A stretch of 32,000 nt of DNA from Candidatus Saccharimonadota bacterium (GCA_004563595.2 CP042461.1:420001-452000); one strand, 5' to 3'. Positions 2,885-32,000 are shown, counted from the first letter of the stretch. Notes: generated by a model from the letters alone, not told the origin. A program made the numbers and translations.

Positions 2885-3089
2885 ATTTTTTAAAATACAA
2901 AAAATATACTATTATTACTTTAAATATGATATACTTTTAAGTATGAAAATAAGAAGATGGAACTATAAATCTTGCTATAATTTCATAAAATCTTAAAATA
3001 AAACATAAGAAAGTTTTGACTTAAAAATATACTCGTATATATATTGTATATATTTAAGTAAATATCTTTAATTTTATAATATTGTTCCT

Positions 3090-3467
3090 ATGGCAAAAAA
3101 GGAGTTCGAAGAAATAGTATTGGAAAAACTATCAAGTTTTGAAAATTTTCAAGGAGTTGTGATTCAAAAACTAGATACTATTGAGACTGATGTATCTGAA
3201 CTAAAAACTGATGTATCGTGACTGAAGAAAGATGTATCTGGGCTAAAGTCAGATGTTTCGATATTGAAGCATAAAGTAGATGTAATTGATGATAGAACAT
3301 CAATTATGGGAAGACAAATTGAAGTGTTAGAAGGGAGGTCATCTGTCATGGACAGAAAAATTGATGGATTATATGATCAAAACATAGAGTTACAAGCCTC
3401 TATTGACCTTAATAGTAAATATATCAATCAATCATTTGAAAAGATTTCAGAGAATAATTTTAAATAG
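3090..3467 (+). CDS. Coiled-coil protein with heptad repeats (125 aa)
   Basis: ATG 3090 to TAG 3465-3467 with one internal TGA. Sequence MAKKEFEEIVLEKL..TDVSELK TDVSGLK KDVSGLK SDVSILK.. Confidence 0.75.
3186..3269 (+). repeat. Four tandem 21-nt (7-codon) repeats inside the coiled-coil gene
   Basis: Repeat units are actgatgtatctgaactaaaa / actgatgtatcgtgactgaag / aaagatgtatctgggctaaag / tcagatgtttcgatattgaag. TGA at 3219-3221 sits at the repeat position that is GGG (Gly) in the next unit. Confidence 0.85.
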
Positions 3468-5496: not shown

Positions 5497-6756
5497 CTAT
5501 TTAAATATTATTTTAAACTCAGTTCAACTTCCTTTTTCACTTTTTACTTCTAATTTGTAATCTAAAATATTAGTTATTTTTTTTACGATATTGAGTCAGA
5601 CTCAATATCACTTTCATTTTGTATTTGCTCTATAGAAGCTATCAAATATTTTAGATAAGTTTTTTTTGCTGATGCCTACTCAACTGTCTTTAATAGTAAG
5701 AGTGTTTTTATCAAAGATAATACTTATTTTTCATCACTGTTTGTTGTATTTAAATGCATTATCTAAAATATTTTTTATGAGTATTTCAACGAGTTTTTTA
5801 TTTGTGGTGAGAAGAATACTTCCCGGTATTTTCTCGACTATTTTTATGCCTTTTGAATGATAGATTTTTTTTAAGATATCTGTCTTTTCTTTTATAATGC
5901 TTGAAATATCTATAGTATTTTTTTTAATGTCTCACTTAAAATTTTCTATTTTTGAAATGAATAAAAATGTTTCAAGGAGCTCATTGAGTACATCAATTTG
6001 TCTTTCAATTTTACCAAATGATTCATTGTTTTTTCAGGAGAGTATGAGATATTCAAGCTCACTTGAAATAACCATAAGCGGAGTTTTAAATTCGTGTGCT
6101 ACTTGAGAGTTAAAATCTTTCAGACTCTTTGTGTTTTGTTCAATGATATCTAAGAAATTATTAATAGAATCTACTATTGTATTTATTTCATCATTCTTAT
6201 TTAAATGTAAGTCAATTTTTTCAACATGGTTTAAATCGATATCTTTTAATTTTTTTGAAATATAAAAAATATCTTTTAAAGCTAACTTTGTGAATAAAAG
6301 CTTTGAAATAATAAAAGATAATATTGTGAAAATAAACAATAGTAATACCCCTATTTTTATTCATCTTACTTGTGAGTAAGCATGTGTTGATACATCGTAA
6401 GGAATAAGTATGTCTCAAAACTTTGTTTCTTGTTGATGAATAACAAAGAATAAGTCTTCTCTAGAATATATCTCCAAAAATACTTGGTTATATTGTTCTC
6501 TATGAGATCATTGAGAGAAATATCATCATAGCTCACTGAGTTCTTTTAACATTTTTTTTCGTTGTATAGTTATATCAGAGCTTTCCTCTAATACTTCAGC
6601 ATATTCACTCTCCATTTTTTTTGTTATATCATTTCTTTCTTCATCATACCATGCAAAAAAGGATAATACGTTTAAGAGTATCAGTATCGTTCATACTATA
6701 AAAAAGGTAAATATCGAAAATATCATTGATATCCTTGTCGAAGTTTTAATTTTCAT
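5497..6756 (-). CDS. Sensor histidine kinase (419 aa; two TM segments, HisKA + HATPase_c)
   Basis: H-box SQVAHEFKTPL, N-box DNAFKYN, G1 DSGVGI and G2 GKGYGVGLNIV are present, with TGA at the conserved Gly. The start overlaps the regulator gene by 11 nt. Confidence 0.92.
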
Positions 6757-12075: not shown

Positions 12076-12726
12076 CTACCAATGTTCTCAAAAAATGACG
12101 TTATATATAGTATATGGTCAATCATACGCTTCTAATATCCCTTCTCTATACTCTTTTTTTCTTTCTTCTGTAAAGGTCTCAAATTCTTCACACATATCCA
12201 TATGTACTTTTTCATGGTTTTTATATGGCATGGAATTTACTCATATTATATCAGTCTGGATATCACAAATATCTTTTGAAATATGCCTATATGATGCATC
12301 TTCTAAAAAAAATTTAATTTTTTCTATAATTATTTTCTGATTTTCAGATAATATTTGATCTCTAAATTGATCAATATAGTAATATTTAAATGGAACCGAA
12401 ACTATTATATTAAAAGGAGAGTCAATTTTATTGTCATCACTCCTGTAATCTATATGAAATGAATTTCAGTTATCCATATCAAAATTTCATGCCCATACTA
12501 AAAAATTCTCAACCTGTATTTTTTTCATTAATTCTTTTGTAATATTATCAAGAAAAGATATTTTTTTATCGTAATTATATGAATCAAGTTTTAATCTATT
12601 TAAGTTCTCTTTTTTTAATAAATAGATATCAAATATATCTTTAGGAATCTTAAGTTTCTCTTTTAATAAATCTTCATATAATTGTTCTTTTGTTTTCATA
12701 AATATAGGATTAATATATAGTTTCAT
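12076..12726 (-). CDS. Putative immunity protein, paralog A (216 aa from ATG 12726; 207 aa if it starts at ATG 12699)
   Basis: The track ORF 12487-12726 extends through TGA to TAG 12076-12078. The C-terminal ~50 aa (MPY..H.KVHMDMCEEFETFT.ERKKEYREGILEAYDGPYTIYNVIFGEHW) is near-identical to the gene at 13649-14281, while the N-terminal halves have diverged. Confidence 0.7.
12077..12232. repeat. ~155-nt near-identical repeat (partner 13650-13805)
   Basis: By-eye alignment shows about 10 mismatches. The repeat covers the 3' ends of the two immunity-like paralogs. Confidence 0.85.
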
Positions 12727-12826
12727 TTCATTTTTGAATATCTGTATATCCGTGCACTGATCAATCTTTTCTAATAATTATTCTCATAAAATCTGTATTA
12801 GTACCATTTTTATATATAATTTTCAT
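12710..12826 (-). pseudogene. Orphan toxin C-terminal tip (38 codons), homologous to the last ~35 aa of the 1102-aa protein
   Basis: MKIIYKNGTNTDFMRIIIRKDGSVHGYTDIQKGNETIY compares with ..IYAKNGTNTDFMRIIIRKDGSVHGYPDVINGTNDIVIY in the full-length gene. Nt 12746-12811 match 14323-14388 with 2 mismatches. Confidence 0.6.
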
Positions 12827-13648: not shown

Positions 13649-14281
13649 TTACCAATGTTCTCAGAAAATTACGTTATATATAGTATATGGTCAATCATAC
13701 GCTTCTAATATTCCTTCTCTATACTCTTTTTTTCTTTCCTGAGTAAAGGTCTCAAATTCTTCACACATATCCATATGTACTTTTACATGATCTTCATATG
13801 GCATACTATAACTTCATACTATGTCAGTAGGTATTTTCCATAATTCAAGGGGGAGAGTTTTATATAATTTTTCTTTTAAAAATGGAATGATTTTATTGAT
13901 GATTTCTAATATTTCTCATTCAACTTTTTCTTCTCTGACCTGTTCAATATAATAATATGGTACATCTAACGATACAGCTATATTAAAGGGGGAAAACTTT
14001 GTCATATCTTTAGAGTGGAATCAAATACTAAAAATATTAGATCAGAAGGTATTTGACCGTGATGCTCATAATGCATAATGAGGTTTATTTACTAATTTAA
14101 TTAATTCATCAGAGATTTTTTTAATAAATTTTTTATCCCTTTCAAAACTCTTTTTTGTTTCTTGAAAATAATCAATGTTTCCTTTCCTGCTTTTATATAT
14201 CTCTAATATTTCTTTTGGTAGTTTATCTTTATTCTCGAGGATTTTTTTTAAACATTCATCTCTATTCATAGTAGTGTTCAT
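13649..14281 (-). CDS. Putative cognate immunity protein, paralog B (210 aa)
   Basis: ATG 14281 overlaps the TAA of the upstream 1102-aa gene by 1 nt (TAATG). The track ORF 14066-14281 extends to TAA 13649-13651. It is a paralog of 12076-12726. Confidence 0.7.
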
Positions 14282-17200
14282 TAATAAATAACGATATCAT
14301 TAGTTCAGTTGATTACATCTGGATATCCGTGCACTGATCAATCTTTTCTAATGATTATTCTCATAAAGTCTGTATTAGTACCATTTTTTGCATATATTCA
14401 AACATCAGACAGTTTAACTAGAATCCCGTCAGATTTAGTTTTATTAATATCAAATACATCTTTAGGAACCTTGTCTAAAGCTATTTTATGTAAACCTATA
14501 ACTTCATCAGAGTTAGTTGTGTAAAAATAACTTTTTGGTTTGTTAGGTTTATCTTTTAATGCTTTTTCATAAAGAGGATTTCATTTAATATGCTCCTGTA
14601 CTTTAACTGCTCCTTGCAAAATCTTAAATTGAAATCAGTTTTTACTTTCAAATGTTAGAGTTTTTGAAAACTTATTTGCTTGCTTGAGCGTATTTAAGTC
14701 CTTTGAATCATCACTGACAAGTTTTTTACCTTTATTTAATTTTGATAAAGGAATGAGGTTCAGAGCTATATGAGTTTCTATATAACTTTTGTAGTATCAT
14801 TTATCATAATCAGAGTATCCATCAATAATTTCATCAATATTTTCTAATATTTCTATCCCATCTACTAAATATTCTGGTAGATTTGATAAGTTTAAGTTAA
14901 TATCGCTATTTATCAAGTTTGTCATTGCTTTTTTTACTGCTGATAGAAGCTCAGGGAGCATTGATGGGTCAATTATTTCAATCATTCCAACTATAAAATC
15001 ACCAATTGCTTTCTCAGTTCAATCAATTGATCATAGACCTGGACTATACACTCTTTTTAGCTCTTTTAATCATTCATCTGACTGCATGAGGCTGTATACT
15101 TGATCTATATCTGGTATGAGTTGTTTATATGTGTTATATTCATTATCATTTAAAAATCATGAATTATATATTTTTTCTAAGAAACTCGATGAATATACAC
15201 TTTTTCAAGTTAATGTTTCATAGTTTTCTCTGGTGTTATATCATACCAGTGTAAGATACTGTTGGATTGCTACTTGATAATTTAATGACACCTCTGTTAG
15301 ATTAGATAGGACTACTGTATCAAAATAATCAAAATCTCTTAACTTTTTTATTAATGAATCATTATCAATTGTTTCCTCTATTTGTTTATTATTTGCCTCT
15401 TTAATCAAAAATTCTCTCACTGCCTCTTCATGATCAGAATTATTTACTTCAATCCTATCCATTGTAGAAACAGTTGAGTAATCTGGAGCAACTTTAAATT
15501 CTATCCATACGAGCGCAGGGTAATCATTCCCAGTTCACTTTCTGTTGTATTTTGTATACACAGTAAAAGGGTACTCTTTGTATTCATTTGTACCATAAGC
15601 TCATCAACTTATATAATTTTTTATCTGGCCTTCATCATAACGAGTGCTTGATTCTAAGGTTTCTGTATCAACTCATTTTTTAGAAAGATAGGTATTGAGT
15701 CTTCCAAGAAACCCCTCGGGATTATATATTGTCGTAGCATCTAAATCATCATTTCCTTCATTTCCTCATAATATTGGAGTTTCATCTTCATCATCATTTA
15801 TGATAATAACATCTGGACTTTCAGAATCACCACCTCAAAAAATGATATCATCACTGGTATCCCATTTATCTTCCATCAGCGCTTGTTGCTCTGGAGTAAG
15901 CTGATTAAAGAAGTAAGCATCTCTTTCTAAATATCTTCTTACCGTAGCAGATCACCTATCTCATCTGGATGATCAGAGATTAAAGTTTATCCACACCCCA
16001 TCAGGTCTCAGATATCTTTGTTCTCATGTAAAATCTCTGTCCGAAAATTTTACGATTCATGTATCACGATAAAAACTATTGTTACTGGTATCTTGATATC
16101 TATTTTTGTATTGGTAGACTACAGTTATTCCATACACATTTGCTATTTTTGGCACCCAATATTCTTCTTTATTTTGATACCTACAACCATCATTTTTTAT
16201 ATATCAATTTAACCATACGGGCTTTACCGTATCTGATATCCAGTATTCTTTGAAAGTATCATCTTCTATATTTTCAATAATTTGAGACGAACAATAGAGT
16301 CTTTTTACATATAAGTTTTGTGTATTTACATTGTTTATAGTAATTACTAGGTCTTTGCTTCTTCAGTTTTCATAGGTAAGTGTGAGAACTATCTCTTGGG
16401 ACTCTCAATTATAACGTTCACTTGGCCTATATGCTAATATTCCTCAGTTCACTTCTAACGAAGAGTTATTTCAAGATTTGATTGTGGCTGTAATAGCTAA
16501 ATTATTTTCATTTTTTATAACTCATAAATCGTACCAATTTATTTCAAATTGATCTCATACTGGTCATTCTATCACCGTAGGGTATTCTACAGAAAAATTA
16601 CTCACTTCTATTGCTGTAGTATTTTCTGCTATATTTTCTTCATCGAGGTTTTGAGATGTATCTCAATTACTTTCAGGAGTATTTCACTCTGAGAGCGTAC
16701 TTGAATTAGTAAAAGTTTCTACTATGGAAACAGAACCATTTTTATATGTCTCTTTGATGTAAAGTGTTTCTCATTGATATATTGCTATTGAATCATCATT
16801 ATATAAAGCCCAATCTTCTCAGTTGTAACTGATATTTATATATCAATCAGTATCAGTTTTTGTTAATCTCAGATAGAGAGTACTATTTTCATATTTCCTA
16901 TCAACAATAATGATATTTGAATCTTGCTTGATAGTATCTATTGATTCAGTTACAAAAGAAACACTTCTATCAGTTATAATTGTAGAATCATTATTATCAC
17001 AGTTGTGTGCATCATTTATATTGATTTTTCAATCAGAGTTTGTATCTGATAATTTTAAACCATCGGTAAGTATCTCACTTATCTTTTTATTTATTAATTC
17101 AACATTAACTGAAGAATCTGAGTTGAGGTATAAGCCAAGATTCTCTCAATTTTTTCACAGAAGTATTTCTGTTACTTGGGTAGTACATAAATTAAGATGG

Positions 17201-18840: not shown

Positions 18841-18895
18841 TAATATCAATTAAAAACCCATTGAATAAAATTCAATGGGTTTTTAATTGATATTA
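18841..18895. terminator. Perfect ~26-bp inverted repeat (bidirectional terminator)
   Basis: taatatcaattaaaaacccattgaat (18841-18866) pairs with attcaatgggtttttaattgatatta (18870-18895). It sits between convergent genes, and the right arm contains the TAA of the pilin-LamG gene. Confidence 0.65.
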
Positions 18896-26302: not shown

Positions 26303-26366
26303 AGACTTTTTGTGTAAATAAAAATTTAAAAAACAAAAACTCTACTGATTCTAGTAGAGTTTTTTT
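26297..26366 (+). promoter_or_regulatory. Attenuator: competing antiterminator (A:B) and terminator (B:C) hairpins
   Basis: Segment A is cagtagag..ttttt (26297-26311), B is aaaaactctactg (26335-26347) and C is agtagagttttttt (26353-26366). B pairs perfectly with C (12 bp, followed by a T-run) or with A (8+5 bp with a 2-nt bulge). Confidence 0.55.
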
Positions 26367-26370
26367 AATT

Positions 26371-26475
26371 ACTCCCCCTGCCTTTCAGGCATCCCCCTCC
26401 ATGAGGGGGAACTAAGATTTTCATTGAATTAGATTCTCCCTCTTGGAGGGAGATGTCCTTTAGGACAGAGGGAGT
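26371..26475. repeat. GC-rich nested-palindrome element, copy 1 (105 nt, thrS 5' UTR)
   Basis: Two inverted ~48-nt units, each with sub-hairpins (gcct-ttc-aggc; ccccctc-cat-gaggggg; tctccctc-ttg-gagggaga; gtcct-tt-aggac). The element is closed by actccccctg/cagagggagt. The 10- and 23-nt cores are identical to copy 2. Confidence 0.85.
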
Positions 26476-26505: not shown

Positions 26506-28269
26506 ATGAACATAGAAACAAAGAGGCATTCATTGGCTCATATCATGGCTCAAGCTGTAAAAGACTTATATCCAGATGTAAAAGTAGCAATAGGACCGGA
26601 TACTGATGATGGATTTTATTATGATTTTGATTTTGGAGAAGTAGAATTTTCTGATAAAGAATTAAAGAACGTAGAGAAAAAAATGAAAAAAATTGTTTCT
26701 CAAAATCAATTTTTTGAGCAATTTAACCTTCCCGTTGATGAAGCTATTTCAAAATTAGAATCTCAGGGTGAGGTATTTAAAGTGGAACTTGCTAAAAAAC
26801 TGAAATCAGAAGGGGAAACAGAGCTTTCTTTTTATAAAAATATTTCTCAACAATGAGATGAAAAATTTGTAGATATGTGCAGAGGTCCTCATGTATCAAA
26901 AATGAGTGAGCTCGATGCAAATTCATTTAAACTTGCAAGAGTAGCTGGAGCTTATTGGCTTGGGAATAGTGATAATGCACAACTCACAAGAATTTACGCA
27001 TACGCATTTAATGATAGAGCTGAGCTTGATGTACATCTTAAAATGCTTGAAGAAGCAAAAAAAAGAGATCATAGAATACTCTGAGCAAAGCTTAAGCTAT
27101 TTACTATTTCTGACCTTATTGGTCCAGGTCTTCCTCTTATGCAACCAGCAGGAATGGTAATAAGACAAGAAATTGAAGATTATTTATGGGAGTTACATAA
27201 AGGGAAAGGATATGATAGAGTATGGTCTCCTCATATTGCAAAAGAATCTTTGTATGAGACATCAGGTCATGCTGCAAAGTTCTGAGATGAATTATTTAAA
27301 GTTCAAGGGAAAGAAGATAAATTTATCTTAAAACCTATGAACTGTCCTCATCATATGCAAATTTTTGCTGATAATCAGTTTAGTTATAGAGATATGCCAG
27401 TCAGATATTTCGAACCTGCAACAGTATATAGAGATGAGAAATCAGGACAATTATCAGGTCTTACAAGAGTAAGGGCTATTACTCAAGATGATGGACATTT
27501 ATTCTGTAGAGTTGATCAAATCAAAGATGAGGTAAAATCAATTACTGATATCATTAAAGAATTTTATACAACTATTTGAATGACAGAGGATTATTGGGTA
27601 TCACTTTCAGTAAGAGGAGATGATAAATCTATCTATCTTTGAGGGGATGATGTATGGGAAAAAGCTGAAGCTGCATTAGAAGCTGCTTCAAAAGAAAATG
27701 ATCTTCCATACAAAAGAGTGGAATGAGAAGCTGCTTTTTATGGACCAAAATTAGACTTTATGTTCAAAGATGCTATTGGAAGAGAATGGCAACTAGCTAC
27801 TATTCAATGTGATTTCAATCTTCCTGAAAGATTTAATCTTGCATTTACAAACAAAGAGGGTGAAAAAGAAAGACCAGTAGTAATCCATAGAGCTATCTCT
27901 GGTTCATTAGAAAGAGGTATGGGAGTATTTATAGAACACTTTGCTGGTACTTTCCCATTATGGATGGCTCCAAGACAAGTAAAAATAGTTCCAGTTTCAG
28001 ATGTTTTCTTTGACTATGCTGAAAAAGTAGAAAAAGAACTTAAAAATGCATGAATCAGAGTGACTGCTGACTATGCTTCTGATGGACTCAATAAAAAAGT
28101 AAGAAATGCAGAAAAAATGCACAATAATTATATCTTAGTTCTCTGAGAGCAAGAAGAAACAAATAATTCTGTTTCAGTAAGAAACTATAAAACAAAAGAT
28201 CAAACAGTTGTAGGTTTAGAAGAGTTTAAAACTATGATTTTGGATGAGATTAAAGAGAGGAGGTTGTAG
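26506..28269 (+). CDS. thrS: Threonine--tRNA ligase lacking the N-terminal TGS domain (587 aa)
   Basis: Four track ORFs in one frame are joined by TGA. Motifs [11 protein letters not shown] (editing domain HxxxH), [21 protein letters not shown](TGA)[38 protein letters not shown] and [10 protein letters not shown] are present. Confidence 0.97.
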
Positions 28270-31468: not shown

Positions 31469-32000
31469 ATGATTTATGATGTTGTAATAGTTTGAGCATG
31501 AGCTGCTGGTTTATTTGCTTGAATAAGTCTTGATAAAAAATTAAAAAAAATAGTTTTAGAAAAAAATGAGAAGCCTTGAATAAAGGTTTTATTATCATGA
31601 TGAGAGAGGGCGAATGTTTCAAATATGGATATTGATCCAGAAAGGGACTATTTTACTCAAAACAAAAAATTTTTACTGAGTATATTTTCAAAGTATACAA
31701 ACTGGGATATTATGAGTTTTTTTTCTGAAAATTGAGTAAGTATAGTGGAGGAAGATAGATCGAGGTTGATTTTAGAAAGCTGAGATAGTAAAGAGTTGCT
31801 CGCTTGTTTATTGAAAAAGGTGAAAGAAAATAATTGTGATGTGAAGTGTGGGGATTGAGTGGAGAAGATAGAAAAAACTCCCCCTGTCCTAAAGGACATC
31901 CCCCTCCATGAGGGGGAACTTTGTTCTTACCCCCCTCATGGAGGGGGGATTAAGGGGGGAGTATTTACCATCACAACATCATCATGACAAAAATATCAAG
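31469..32000 (+). CDS. HI0933/BaiN-like FAD-dependent oxidoreductase (partial; runs off the window end)
   Basis: MIYDVVIVGAGAAGLFAG is a Rossmann GxGxxG motif with two TGA Gly. It continues ..IVLEKNEKPGIKVLLSGGERANVSN... The frame is open to nt 32000. Confidence 0.85.
31877..31963. repeat. GC-rich nested-palindrome element, copy 2 (87 nt, in frame inside the flavoprotein CDS)
   Basis: actccccctg-tcctaaaggac-atccccctccatgagggggaact, a spacer, then an inverted partial unit ccccctcatggaggggggattaaggggggagt. It translates as TPPVLKDIPLHEGELCSYPPHGGGIKGGV without a stop. Confidence 0.85.

Follow-up and report, generated by a model that had tools for sequence, protein, structure and literature searches.

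We describe a GC-rich repeat that interrupts a flavoprotein gene in frame within a stretch of 32,000 nucleotides (nt) filed under Candidatus Saccharimonadota bacterium (CP042461.1, 420001 to 452000; hereafter the window). The insert, copy 2, belongs to a GC-rich repeat family that is dispersed in genomes of the Gracilibacteria type, in which UGA encodes glycine. By comparison with homologues it sits at a turn between two β strands of the flavin adenine dinucleotide (FAD)-binding domain. The joint reading that we favor, with fair but not full confidence, is that a dispersed repeat doublet of the BoxC/PIT/TMECO type was inserted at a tolerant turn and is likely translated; its speculative part is an origin linked to DUF559 genes and resembling that of MITEs (miniature transposable elements with inverted repeats). 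An earlier note made from the sequence alone (the sequence-only reading) had described copy 2 as 29 codons (87 nt) of an HI0933-like open reading frame (ORF), with no stop or frameshift, and translation with TGA as Gly confirmed this. The three features on which the argument turns are as follows.

31469..31999, plus strand: 5′ part, 177 codons, of a gene for an HI0933-like FAD flavoprotein, from translation with TGA = Gly, PF03486 and PDB homologues.
31877..31963, plus strand: copy 2, a doublet element of 87 nt, 29 in-frame codons (TPPVLKDIPLHEGELCSYPPHGGGIKGGV), from translation and orthologue comparison.
26371..26475, no strand assigned: copy 1, an intergenic doublet of 105 nt, flanked by the upstream gene's terminator-like hairpin and the start of thrS.

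The GC content of the window is 28%. ORFs of at least 100 amino acids total 14,538 amino acids with translation table 25 (TGA = Gly) versus 2,156 with table 11. We read TGA as glycine because open frames are long only with table 25 and because in-frame TGAs align with motif glycines. The flavoprotein ORF begins with ATG at 31469 and runs past the end of the window; its translation reads MIYDVVIVGAGAAGLFAG...LSGGERANVSN.... Among its ten in-frame TGAs are residues 9, 11, 44 and 45, which align with the glycines of the GxGxxG and SGGxRxN FAD motifs of 2i0z, 4cnj and 2gqf, and TGA is for this reason read as Gly and not as Trp. A tRNA-Gly(UCA), sought in the window as proof of the code, was not found there, tRNA-Met being the only tRNA. 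The Pfam family HI0933_like (PF03486) matched residues 4–137 (104.9 bits, E 6e-30), and the match ends exactly at the insertion point. Homologues in the PDB are 2i0z, 4cnj, 2gqf and 3v76.

We found 15 relatives of the flavoprotein (‘Candidatus Gracilibacteria’ where named) and compared the DNA of six. At the position of copy 2, loci L130, L131 and L005 have 0–3 residues; in L128, the closest relative and syntenic with regard to thrS, some 10 AT-rich codons of unrelated sequence stand there. The structures 2i0z, 4cnj and 3v76 have a short turn there and nothing matching the 29 residues. The proposal that the segment is an insertion was thus borne out by alignment to these four orthologues and to the PDB structures, all of which lack it. 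Copy 2 is preceded by ..CGDGVEKIEK and followed by FTITTSSGQKYQ; these 12 downstream codons align with YKVTTSSGQVYF of L128, TTSSGQ being common to both, and the reading frame is therefore kept across copy 2. Intact genes of this family have 387 codons in L128 and 397 in L005. The orthologue P0005 has a different insert at this site (residues 142–161); its AlphaFold model gives this insert a predicted local distance difference test (pLDDT) score below 50 and places it between strands 133–137 and 164–168. The model superimposes on 4cnj, 2i0z and 2gqf with template modeling (TM) scores of 0.64–0.66. The earlier description of the flank as an ordinary strand-turn-strand region agrees with this placement and with the short turn of the PDB homologues.

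Other GC-rich hairpin inserts occupy the same turn in L008, L009 and L129, and L005 and L008 carry an insert each at a second shared site. It follows that a few positions are either hit repeatedly or alone tolerated, and orthologue comparison points to the copy 2 turn as such a repeatedly hit or permissive site. Insertion at this turn would have survived through a whole number of codons, the lack of TAA and TAG in the frame used, and the tolerance of the site. Copy 2 is most likely transcribed and translated as a Pro/Gly-rich loop of 29 residues, by analogy with Rickettsia palindromic elements (RPEs); the corresponding tryptic peptide is DIPLHEGELCSYPPHGGGIK. Reassignment of TGA would help in-frame survival, since the core hairpin contains CCATGAGG. 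Because of this same motif, code 25 leaves all six frames of the canonical left module open and code 11 leaves four. Copy 2 as a whole has a single open frame out of six, the one used, so about 1/6 of insertions would survive selection. The lack of a stop, to which the sequence-only reading had drawn attention, is thus real and at the same time a weak signal.

Some orthologues of the flavoprotein gene are interrupted. There is an in-frame TAA in L131 (329–600) and an early stop in L129 (1682–1864); the HI0933-like gene may be decaying in some lineages, or these may be assembly errors. In L008 the flavoprotein frame shifts by +1 at a 31-nt module (5714–5744) and returns at a second GC-rich module (~5960–5995), some 250 nt further on. 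These shifts are likely homopolymer sequencing errors, since they fall in C6/G6 runs and the contig name ‘2x’ was read as low coverage; programmed frameshifting or bypass is an alternative.

The DNA of copy 2 is ACTCCCCCTGTCCTAAAGGACATCCCCCTCCATGAGGGGGAACTTTGTTCTTACCCCCCTCATGGAGGGGGGATTAAGGGGGGAGTA. A full element is a doublet of two inverted modules of about 40 nt with an AT-rich spacer between them. The order within a module is an outer strand (CTCCCCCT), an optional linker hairpin and an 8-bp pyrimidine/purine hairpin (TCCCCCTC-CAT-GAGGGGGA). The stem sequence of the linker hairpin is free, and its frame is fixed (G-stem-loop-stem-C-A). What had earlier been called a palindromic element is indeed a repeat shared by copies 1 and 2, but it is not a plain palindrome: it consists of two inverted modules, each with its own hairpins. 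The parts of the two copies are the following (Y, pyrimidine; R, purine; Y3 and R3, outer strands).

31878..31885, plus strand: copy 2, left module, outer strand Y3 of pyrimidines (CTCCCCCT), which mirrors the Y arm and complements the R arm in parallel.
31886..31897, plus strand: copy 2, left module, linker hairpin GTCC-TAAA-GGAC, whose stem co-varies across the family.
31899..31917, plus strand: copy 2, left module, hairpin TCCCCCTC-CAT-GAGGGGGA, a 19-mer seen across phyla.
31918..31929, plus strand: copy 2, AT-rich spacer between left and right modules.
31930..31948, plus strand: copy 2, right module, hairpin CCCCCCTC-ATG-GAGGGGGG.
31954..31961, plus strand: copy 2, right module, outer strand R3 of purines (GGGGGGAG), which mirrors the R arm GAGGGGGG.
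26372..26410, plus strand: copy 1, left module, with Y3 CTCCCCCT (26372–79), linker GCC-TTTCA-GGC (26380–90) and hairpin TCCCCCTC-CAT-GAGGGGGA (26392–410).
26435..26474, plus strand: copy 1, right module, with hairpin TCTCCCTC-TTG-GAGGGAGA (26435–53), linker GTCC-TTTA-GGAC (26455–66) and R3 AGAGGGAG (26467–74).
26461..26463, plus strand: TAG in frame with the thrS ATG at 26506, which places copy 1 outside the thrS coding sequence.

The TAG upholds the earlier view that copy 1 is non-coding. Copies 1 and 2 share an exact direct match of 24 nt and an inverted match of 44 nt (91%). In their left modules, the 9-nt outer-strand segments (ACTCCCCCT) are identical and the linker hairpins differ. A 17-nt core gave 7 matches in the window (both strands, at most 3 mismatches) versus 0.00 expected from shuffles, and all 7 fall in the four hairpins that the two copies contain. 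Each copy forms a GC island (45–54% GC; copy 2 itself, 50–54%), with edges that are fuzzy by 1–3 nt. Folded as RNA, copy 2 reaches −60.8 kcal/mol (z = −6.2) and copy 1 −59.9 (plus strand) and −63.5 kcal/mol (minus strand), with z between −7 and −8. The heterotypic left/right pairing of copy 1 recurs in L054, L100, L111 and L048. No Rfam family matched the element at the gathering threshold; the only matches, far below it, were to generic long hairpins (microRNA precursors). Within the gene, the first hairpin of copy 2 and the ACTTTGTTCT that follows it (31899–31927) fit a simple pattern for intrinsic terminators, read on the sense strand.

Each outer strand repeats the pyrimidine arm of its hairpin in reversed order and is not its reverse complement. 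It can therefore be seen as the parallel Hoogsteen-type partner of the purine arm, with C opposite G and T opposite A. The exact mirror was kept in at least 10 arm variants at loci of 23–64% GC: TCCCCCTC, TCTCCCTC, CCTCCCTC, CCCCCCTC and TCCCCTCC, as well as TCCCTCCC, CCTCCCCC, CTCCCCCT, TCTCCCCC and CTCCCCCC. Upstream of the arm, the mirror was present 155 times versus 16 times for a direct copy. For six arm types, the cognate mirror upstream gave six matches, and shuffled upstream regions equaled six in 141 of 100,000 trials. Covariation was analyzed in an alignment of 27 modules. In the Watson–Crick hairpins, 98.1% of cells were paired, with 42 double-sided changes (none of 500 shuffles as high); column pair 13–24 of the linker-hairpin stem, for example, held GC 9, CG 8, UA 6 and AU 4 times. 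Parallel covariation between the outer strand and the purine arm was 0.368 versus 0.239 in shuffles (0/500 as high) and 0.19–0.23 when the strands were slid. Examples are the column pairs 7–45 (CG 16, UA 7) and 9–47 (UA 19, CG 4).

The mirror would make physical sense if one strand formed a triplex of the pyrimidine motif and the other a triplex of the purine motif. We infer this model from symmetry and covariation; no ordinary mutational process makes mirrors, and a mirror is meaningless for a symmetric protein dimer. Two other accounts were rejected. Nested self-insertion of hairpins, as in the small dispersed repeats of cyanobacteria, predicts a direct copy of the arm, and a mirror copy is seen. 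Outer strands that serve to pair with each other do not fit a C·A mismatch kept in canonical doublets, nor the match of each outer strand to its own hairpin.

The family extends well beyond the window. An exact 21-mer was found in three other Gracilibacteria-type assemblies (one labelled ‘Peribacteria’), and the 19-mer hairpin in more than 118 metagenome contigs of 21–69% GC. Genic copies were identified with a module finder and Pfam. In-frame copies were seen in other Gracilibacteria assemblies: two modules in the intact HI0933-like gene of L005 (397 amino acids), copies in an RNase HII-QueH gene and a radical-SAM gene (L002), a copy in YaaA (L004), and, in L048, four insertions in PBP1A (one of them a doublet) and an in-frame copy in DUF559. 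Standard-code bacteria (37–55% GC) have the same 19-nt hairpin with mirror flanks in frame at loci L011, L041, L086/L046, L019 and L056; the genes hit are DnaE (residues 836–850), an N6/N4 DNA methylase, a heavy-metal P-type ATPase, Cas1 and a GH78 rhamnosidase. The encoded peptides vary with frame and orientation (IPLHEGE, SPSMRG, PPHGGG, SPSWRE), with no sign of a conserved peptide. Other copies fill intergenic gaps. In L119 (454–1302 with 42–539), an element splits a reverse-transcriptase gene out of frame and with a stop; this gene is probably dispensable, and such an insertion is expected where selection is weak. Carriage of the elements by phages was considered and dropped, as only one viral contig matched.

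In-frame insertion in genes is a hallmark of RPEs (PMC10969869). Like RPEs, the present element is a dispersed fold-back repeat, found both between genes and in frame in unrelated housekeeping genes, where it would add a peptide, probably at sites compatible with the fold. It differs in host and sequence family: copy 2 lies in a genome with TGA = Gly and its relatives are Gracilibacteria assemblies, whereas Rickettsia is alphaproteobacterial. It also differs in being shorter (modules of ~40 nt, doublets of 87–125 nt), in its mirror (triplex-type) symmetry and in its occurrence in several phyla without evidence of a conserved peptide. Since the in-frame behavior is shared but architecture and host are not, the element works like an RPE and is not a member of that family. 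The RPE-like behavior claimed by the sequence-only reading is accordingly supported by intergenic copies and by in-frame copies in Pfam-confirmed genes; the structure is of the BoxC/PIT/TMECO kind. In-frame colonization by repeats, best known from Rickettsia, is thus seen here in a candidate-phylum bacterium with a reassigned stop codon, and loop insertion driven by repeats may be a general source of variation in protein length. Gene callers and aligners will mishandle such inserts, above all in code-25 genomes. A search of the available literature gave no description of inserts of this kind in Gracilibacteria or Patescibacteria.

BoxC/PIT elements were reportedly treated by Hoyne et al. in 2000. 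Repeats of the BoxC/PIT/TMECO group are GC-rich, multi-copy and highly conserved; they are abundant in Enterobacteria, Microcystis, Anabaena and Nostoc, and combine a class II motif on one strand with the pyrimidine-motif class on the other (PMC4666352). In Escherichia coli, TMECO forms inverted doublets at 5 of 18 sites, always of two subtypes; it is always intergenic, has neither promoter nor terminator activity and no link to mobile elements, and is associated with local genome instability (PMC4666352). Holder et al. (2015; PMC4666352) give no protein partner and leave the origin and spread of the repeats unexplained. These repeats share with our element a series of three blocks (pyrimidine arm, purine arm and a third strand in mirror relation), a design present in all four modules of the window, and heterotypic inverted doublets. 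A difference is that most Gracilibacteria modules contain a linker hairpin of 11–19 nt, whereas the ITxF search for intrastrand triplexes allows loops of 1–6 nt. Stems of at least 8 nt and loops in this range are found in the right module of copy 2, where the loops measure 3 and 5 nt; in the remaining three modules, 12–13 nt separate outer strand and hairpin (an 11- to 12-nt linker hairpin plus one base). The full TMECO consensus is CCCTCNCCC N3-6 GGGNGAGGG N3 GGGNGAGGG. Its first two blocks, CCCTCNCCC N3-6 GGGNGAGGG, had no match in the window, and the same pattern finds the E. coli site. Finally, copy 2 and many of its relatives are genic and in frame, whereas TMECO of E. coli is intergenic only.

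When the ORFs of hairpin-bearing loci were clustered, DUF559 (PF04480, a Vsr-like PD-(D/E)xK domain) emerged as a recurrent neighbor. It adjoins the hairpin in six distinct places (L019, L048, L081/L084, L122, L126, L127), at distances from 4 nt (L084) to ~160 nt (L081) or with the module inside the ORF, and often on both sides. A search that started from the protein found modules beside DUF559 in four of four distinct places (five loci, L132–L136, from Cyclobacteriaceae, Brocadiaceae, Scalindua and Chitinophagaceae), one module lying just 5′ of the start codon and a second at the 3′ end or beyond it. On a plasmid of Deinococcus psychrotolerans (L142, 716–1210), a lone DUF559 gene with paaD and paaZ on either side is bracketed by 56-nt terminal inverted repeats (98%), each a mirror-type module; this unit of 495 bp lies at about 298328–298822 of NZ_CP034185. 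In Pseudanabaena (L140, 586–1312), DUF559 lies between inverted arms of 40 and 35 nt, with a gene-less doublet adjoining. The pattern also fits Picosynechococcus and Neisseria gonorrhoeae, Sinorhizobium in part and Synechocystis B12 weakly. In E. coli K-12, a TMECO/BoxC match lies 168 nt 3′ of ycjD, a DUF559 gene (L137:5218–5761); with 23 TMECOs in 4.6 Mb, we estimate the chance of one so near ycjD at ~0.4%. The gene ycjD is not mentioned in PMC4666352, and among publications that mention DUF559 no link to repeats was apparent by title or abstract. The Gracilibacteria locus L048 has a doublet 27 nt upstream of its DUF559 gene, and the protein is 58–65% identical to proteins of Nostocales (Nostoc, Anabaena, Calothrix), which hints at transfer of DUF559 between phyla that both carry modules. 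A homing endonuclease from a group I intron falls within the DUF559 clade (PMC3424549).

Several observations on DUF559 stand beside these results. DUF559 cassettes with modules are seen in or beside loci of the defense or DNA-modification type: one lies between hsdM and hsdS of a type I restriction-modification operon in L133 (1936–4259), another beside the pglX gene of a BREX system (L141) and, as a possible further case, a third upstream of a DUF1156 gene (L139). Many DUF559 matches are on very short contigs or on several contigs, as for multi-copy genes. In E. coli, a ~50-nt duplicate of the 3′ end of ycjD lies between ycjD and the TMECO; the idea that this end is a dispersed E. coli repeat was dropped, since it occurs in only one or two places per genome.

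The DUF559 units with terminal modules in Deinococcus and Pseudanabaena suggest that the doublets are MITE-like. As a more speculative part of our proposal, doublets would be gene-less derivatives of small units made of module ends and a sole DUF559 gene, and the DUF559 endonuclease would nick or recognize the folded module and so promote its copying. MITEs and REPINs are similar in that they are short non-coding inverted doublets resembling the two ends of a larger unit minus its gene; as for MITEs, a gene-carrying unit exists, here in other phyla (DUF559 between 56-nt inverted repeats). The arrangement resembles that of RAYT genes between flanking REPs (PMC3116915). The differences from MITEs and the REP-RAYT system are that no target-site duplication was seen and that the candidate enzyme, a nuclease of the Vsr-like PD-(D/E)xK type, is neither a DDE nor a Y1 transposase. 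DUF559 is a candidate partner of the repeats, and the three-way covariation makes triplex folding testable. It is conceivable, though on balance doubtful, that BoxC/PIT/TMECO-type repeats in general are the ends and gene-less derivatives of an unrecognized class of tiny selfish elements with DUF559 as sole gene, crossing phyla and landing time and again in frame in essential genes, to which they would add Pro/Gly-rich loops. On that tentative account the class would span Gracilibacteria, Cyanobacteriota, Bacteroidota, Planctomycetota, Deinococcota and Pseudomonadota, and, equally tentatively, loss of the TGA stop would make recoded lineages particularly permissive.

Several points weigh against our proposal. 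The window ends 36 nt (12 codons) 3′ of copy 2 and so cuts the flavoprotein gene, and stops or frame changes are present in some orthologues (L131, L129, L008). Target-site duplications, sought in the flanks of 22 copies, were absent, the only regularity being A-rich left and T-rich right contexts; no clean pair of empty and filled sites was found. Kinship among the sequences inflates the shuffle tests. Formation of C+·G–C triplets requires protonation, and where a single module is closed its outer strands may just pair with one another. Nearby modules were scored for DUF559 genes only, and the modules of L133 are at every intergenic junction, not just beside DUF559. There is no DUF559 gene in the window, and L048, the lone Gracilibacteria DUF559 locus, has no long inverted repeats around the gene.

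Since the gene is cut by the end of the window and some orthologues are broken, decay of the flavoprotein gene is possible, and the frame might be kept at copy 2 by chance. The window stops 12 codons past copy 2, orthologues have an in-frame TAA (L131), an early stop (L129) or frame changes at elements (L008), and ~1/6 of random copy 2 insertions would be open. Yet 136 residues before and 12 after the insert align with orthologues and the FAD motifs are kept, L005 (397 codons, two modules) and L128 (387 codons) are intact, and in-frame copies recur in the essential genes PBP1A, RNase HII and DnaE; we regard a pseudogene as unlikely. Somewhat less likely still is that the element is mainly a structural signal selected by the host, such as a terminator, an mRNA stabilizer or a protein-binding site, with copy 2 as a by-product. 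Intergenic copies do fill gene gaps, the hairpins co-vary, and a T run (at least 3) follows 8 of 11 intergenic versus 2 of 11 genic copies (Fisher p = 0.03). However, A/T runs are expected in the intergenic DNA of genomes of 21–28% GC, orientation relative to genes is mixed, a terminator in essential genes would be harmful, and PIT elements of E. coli lack promoter and terminator activity (PMC4666352).

A further alternative holds that copy 2 is present in DNA and absent from the protein, through RNA removal, ribosome skipping (as with gene 60 of phage T4 or the bypass elements of yeast mitochondria) or intragenic attenuation. Yeast mitochondrial GC clusters and bypass elements are GC-rich palindromic mobile inserts that enter protein genes in very AT-rich genomes; ribosomes jump over the bypass elements, and these may be out of frame. 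A very stable fold (−60.8 kcal/mol), the terminator pattern made on the sense strand by the first hairpin and its T-rich tail, and the frame of L008, which changes exactly at two elements and is then restored, would all suit such a mechanism. Copy 2 differs from the bypass elements, being in frame and stop-free, and skipping would require neither. Moreover, neither matching codons for take-off and landing nor intron-like features turned up, Rfam yielded nothing at threshold, and the L008 shifts lie in error-prone C6/G6 runs of a contig whose name, ‘2x’, was read as low coverage. We therefore consider this alternative improbable. The idea that the 29 residues are an old lineage-specific loop, not a repeat insertion, draws on the variable turn length among orthologues and is already effectively refuted: the left module is all but the same as in non-coding copy 1 (24-nt exact match) and in copies from unrelated genes and genomes, and the segment has 50–54% GC in a gene of 28% GC.

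Two further features belong to the context of copy 1.

26335..26366, no strand assigned: ordinary terminator-like hairpin with a T run, just upstream of copy 1.
26506..28269, plus strand: thrS, the threonyl-tRNA synthetase gene, from translation.

In L008 and L128, the thrS homologue (matches to tRNA_SAD, tRNA-synt_2b and HGTP_anticodon) has the same order, before the flavoprotein gene. Elsewhere in the window, 12077–12811 and 13650–14388 contain two direct repeats, 89% identical (179 and 85 nt); they correspond to two paralogous minus-strand genes with the common C-terminus EYREGILEAYDGPYTIYNVIFGEHW. A perfect 26-nt inverted repeat with a 3-nt loop (18841–18895), AT-rich and unrelated to the GC-rich elements, is located in the gap between the end of a plus-strand ORF (18829) and the start of a minus-strand ORF (18896). 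At 3184–3267, three to four tandem 21-nt units, 71–77% alike, lie within the ORF 3072–3464.

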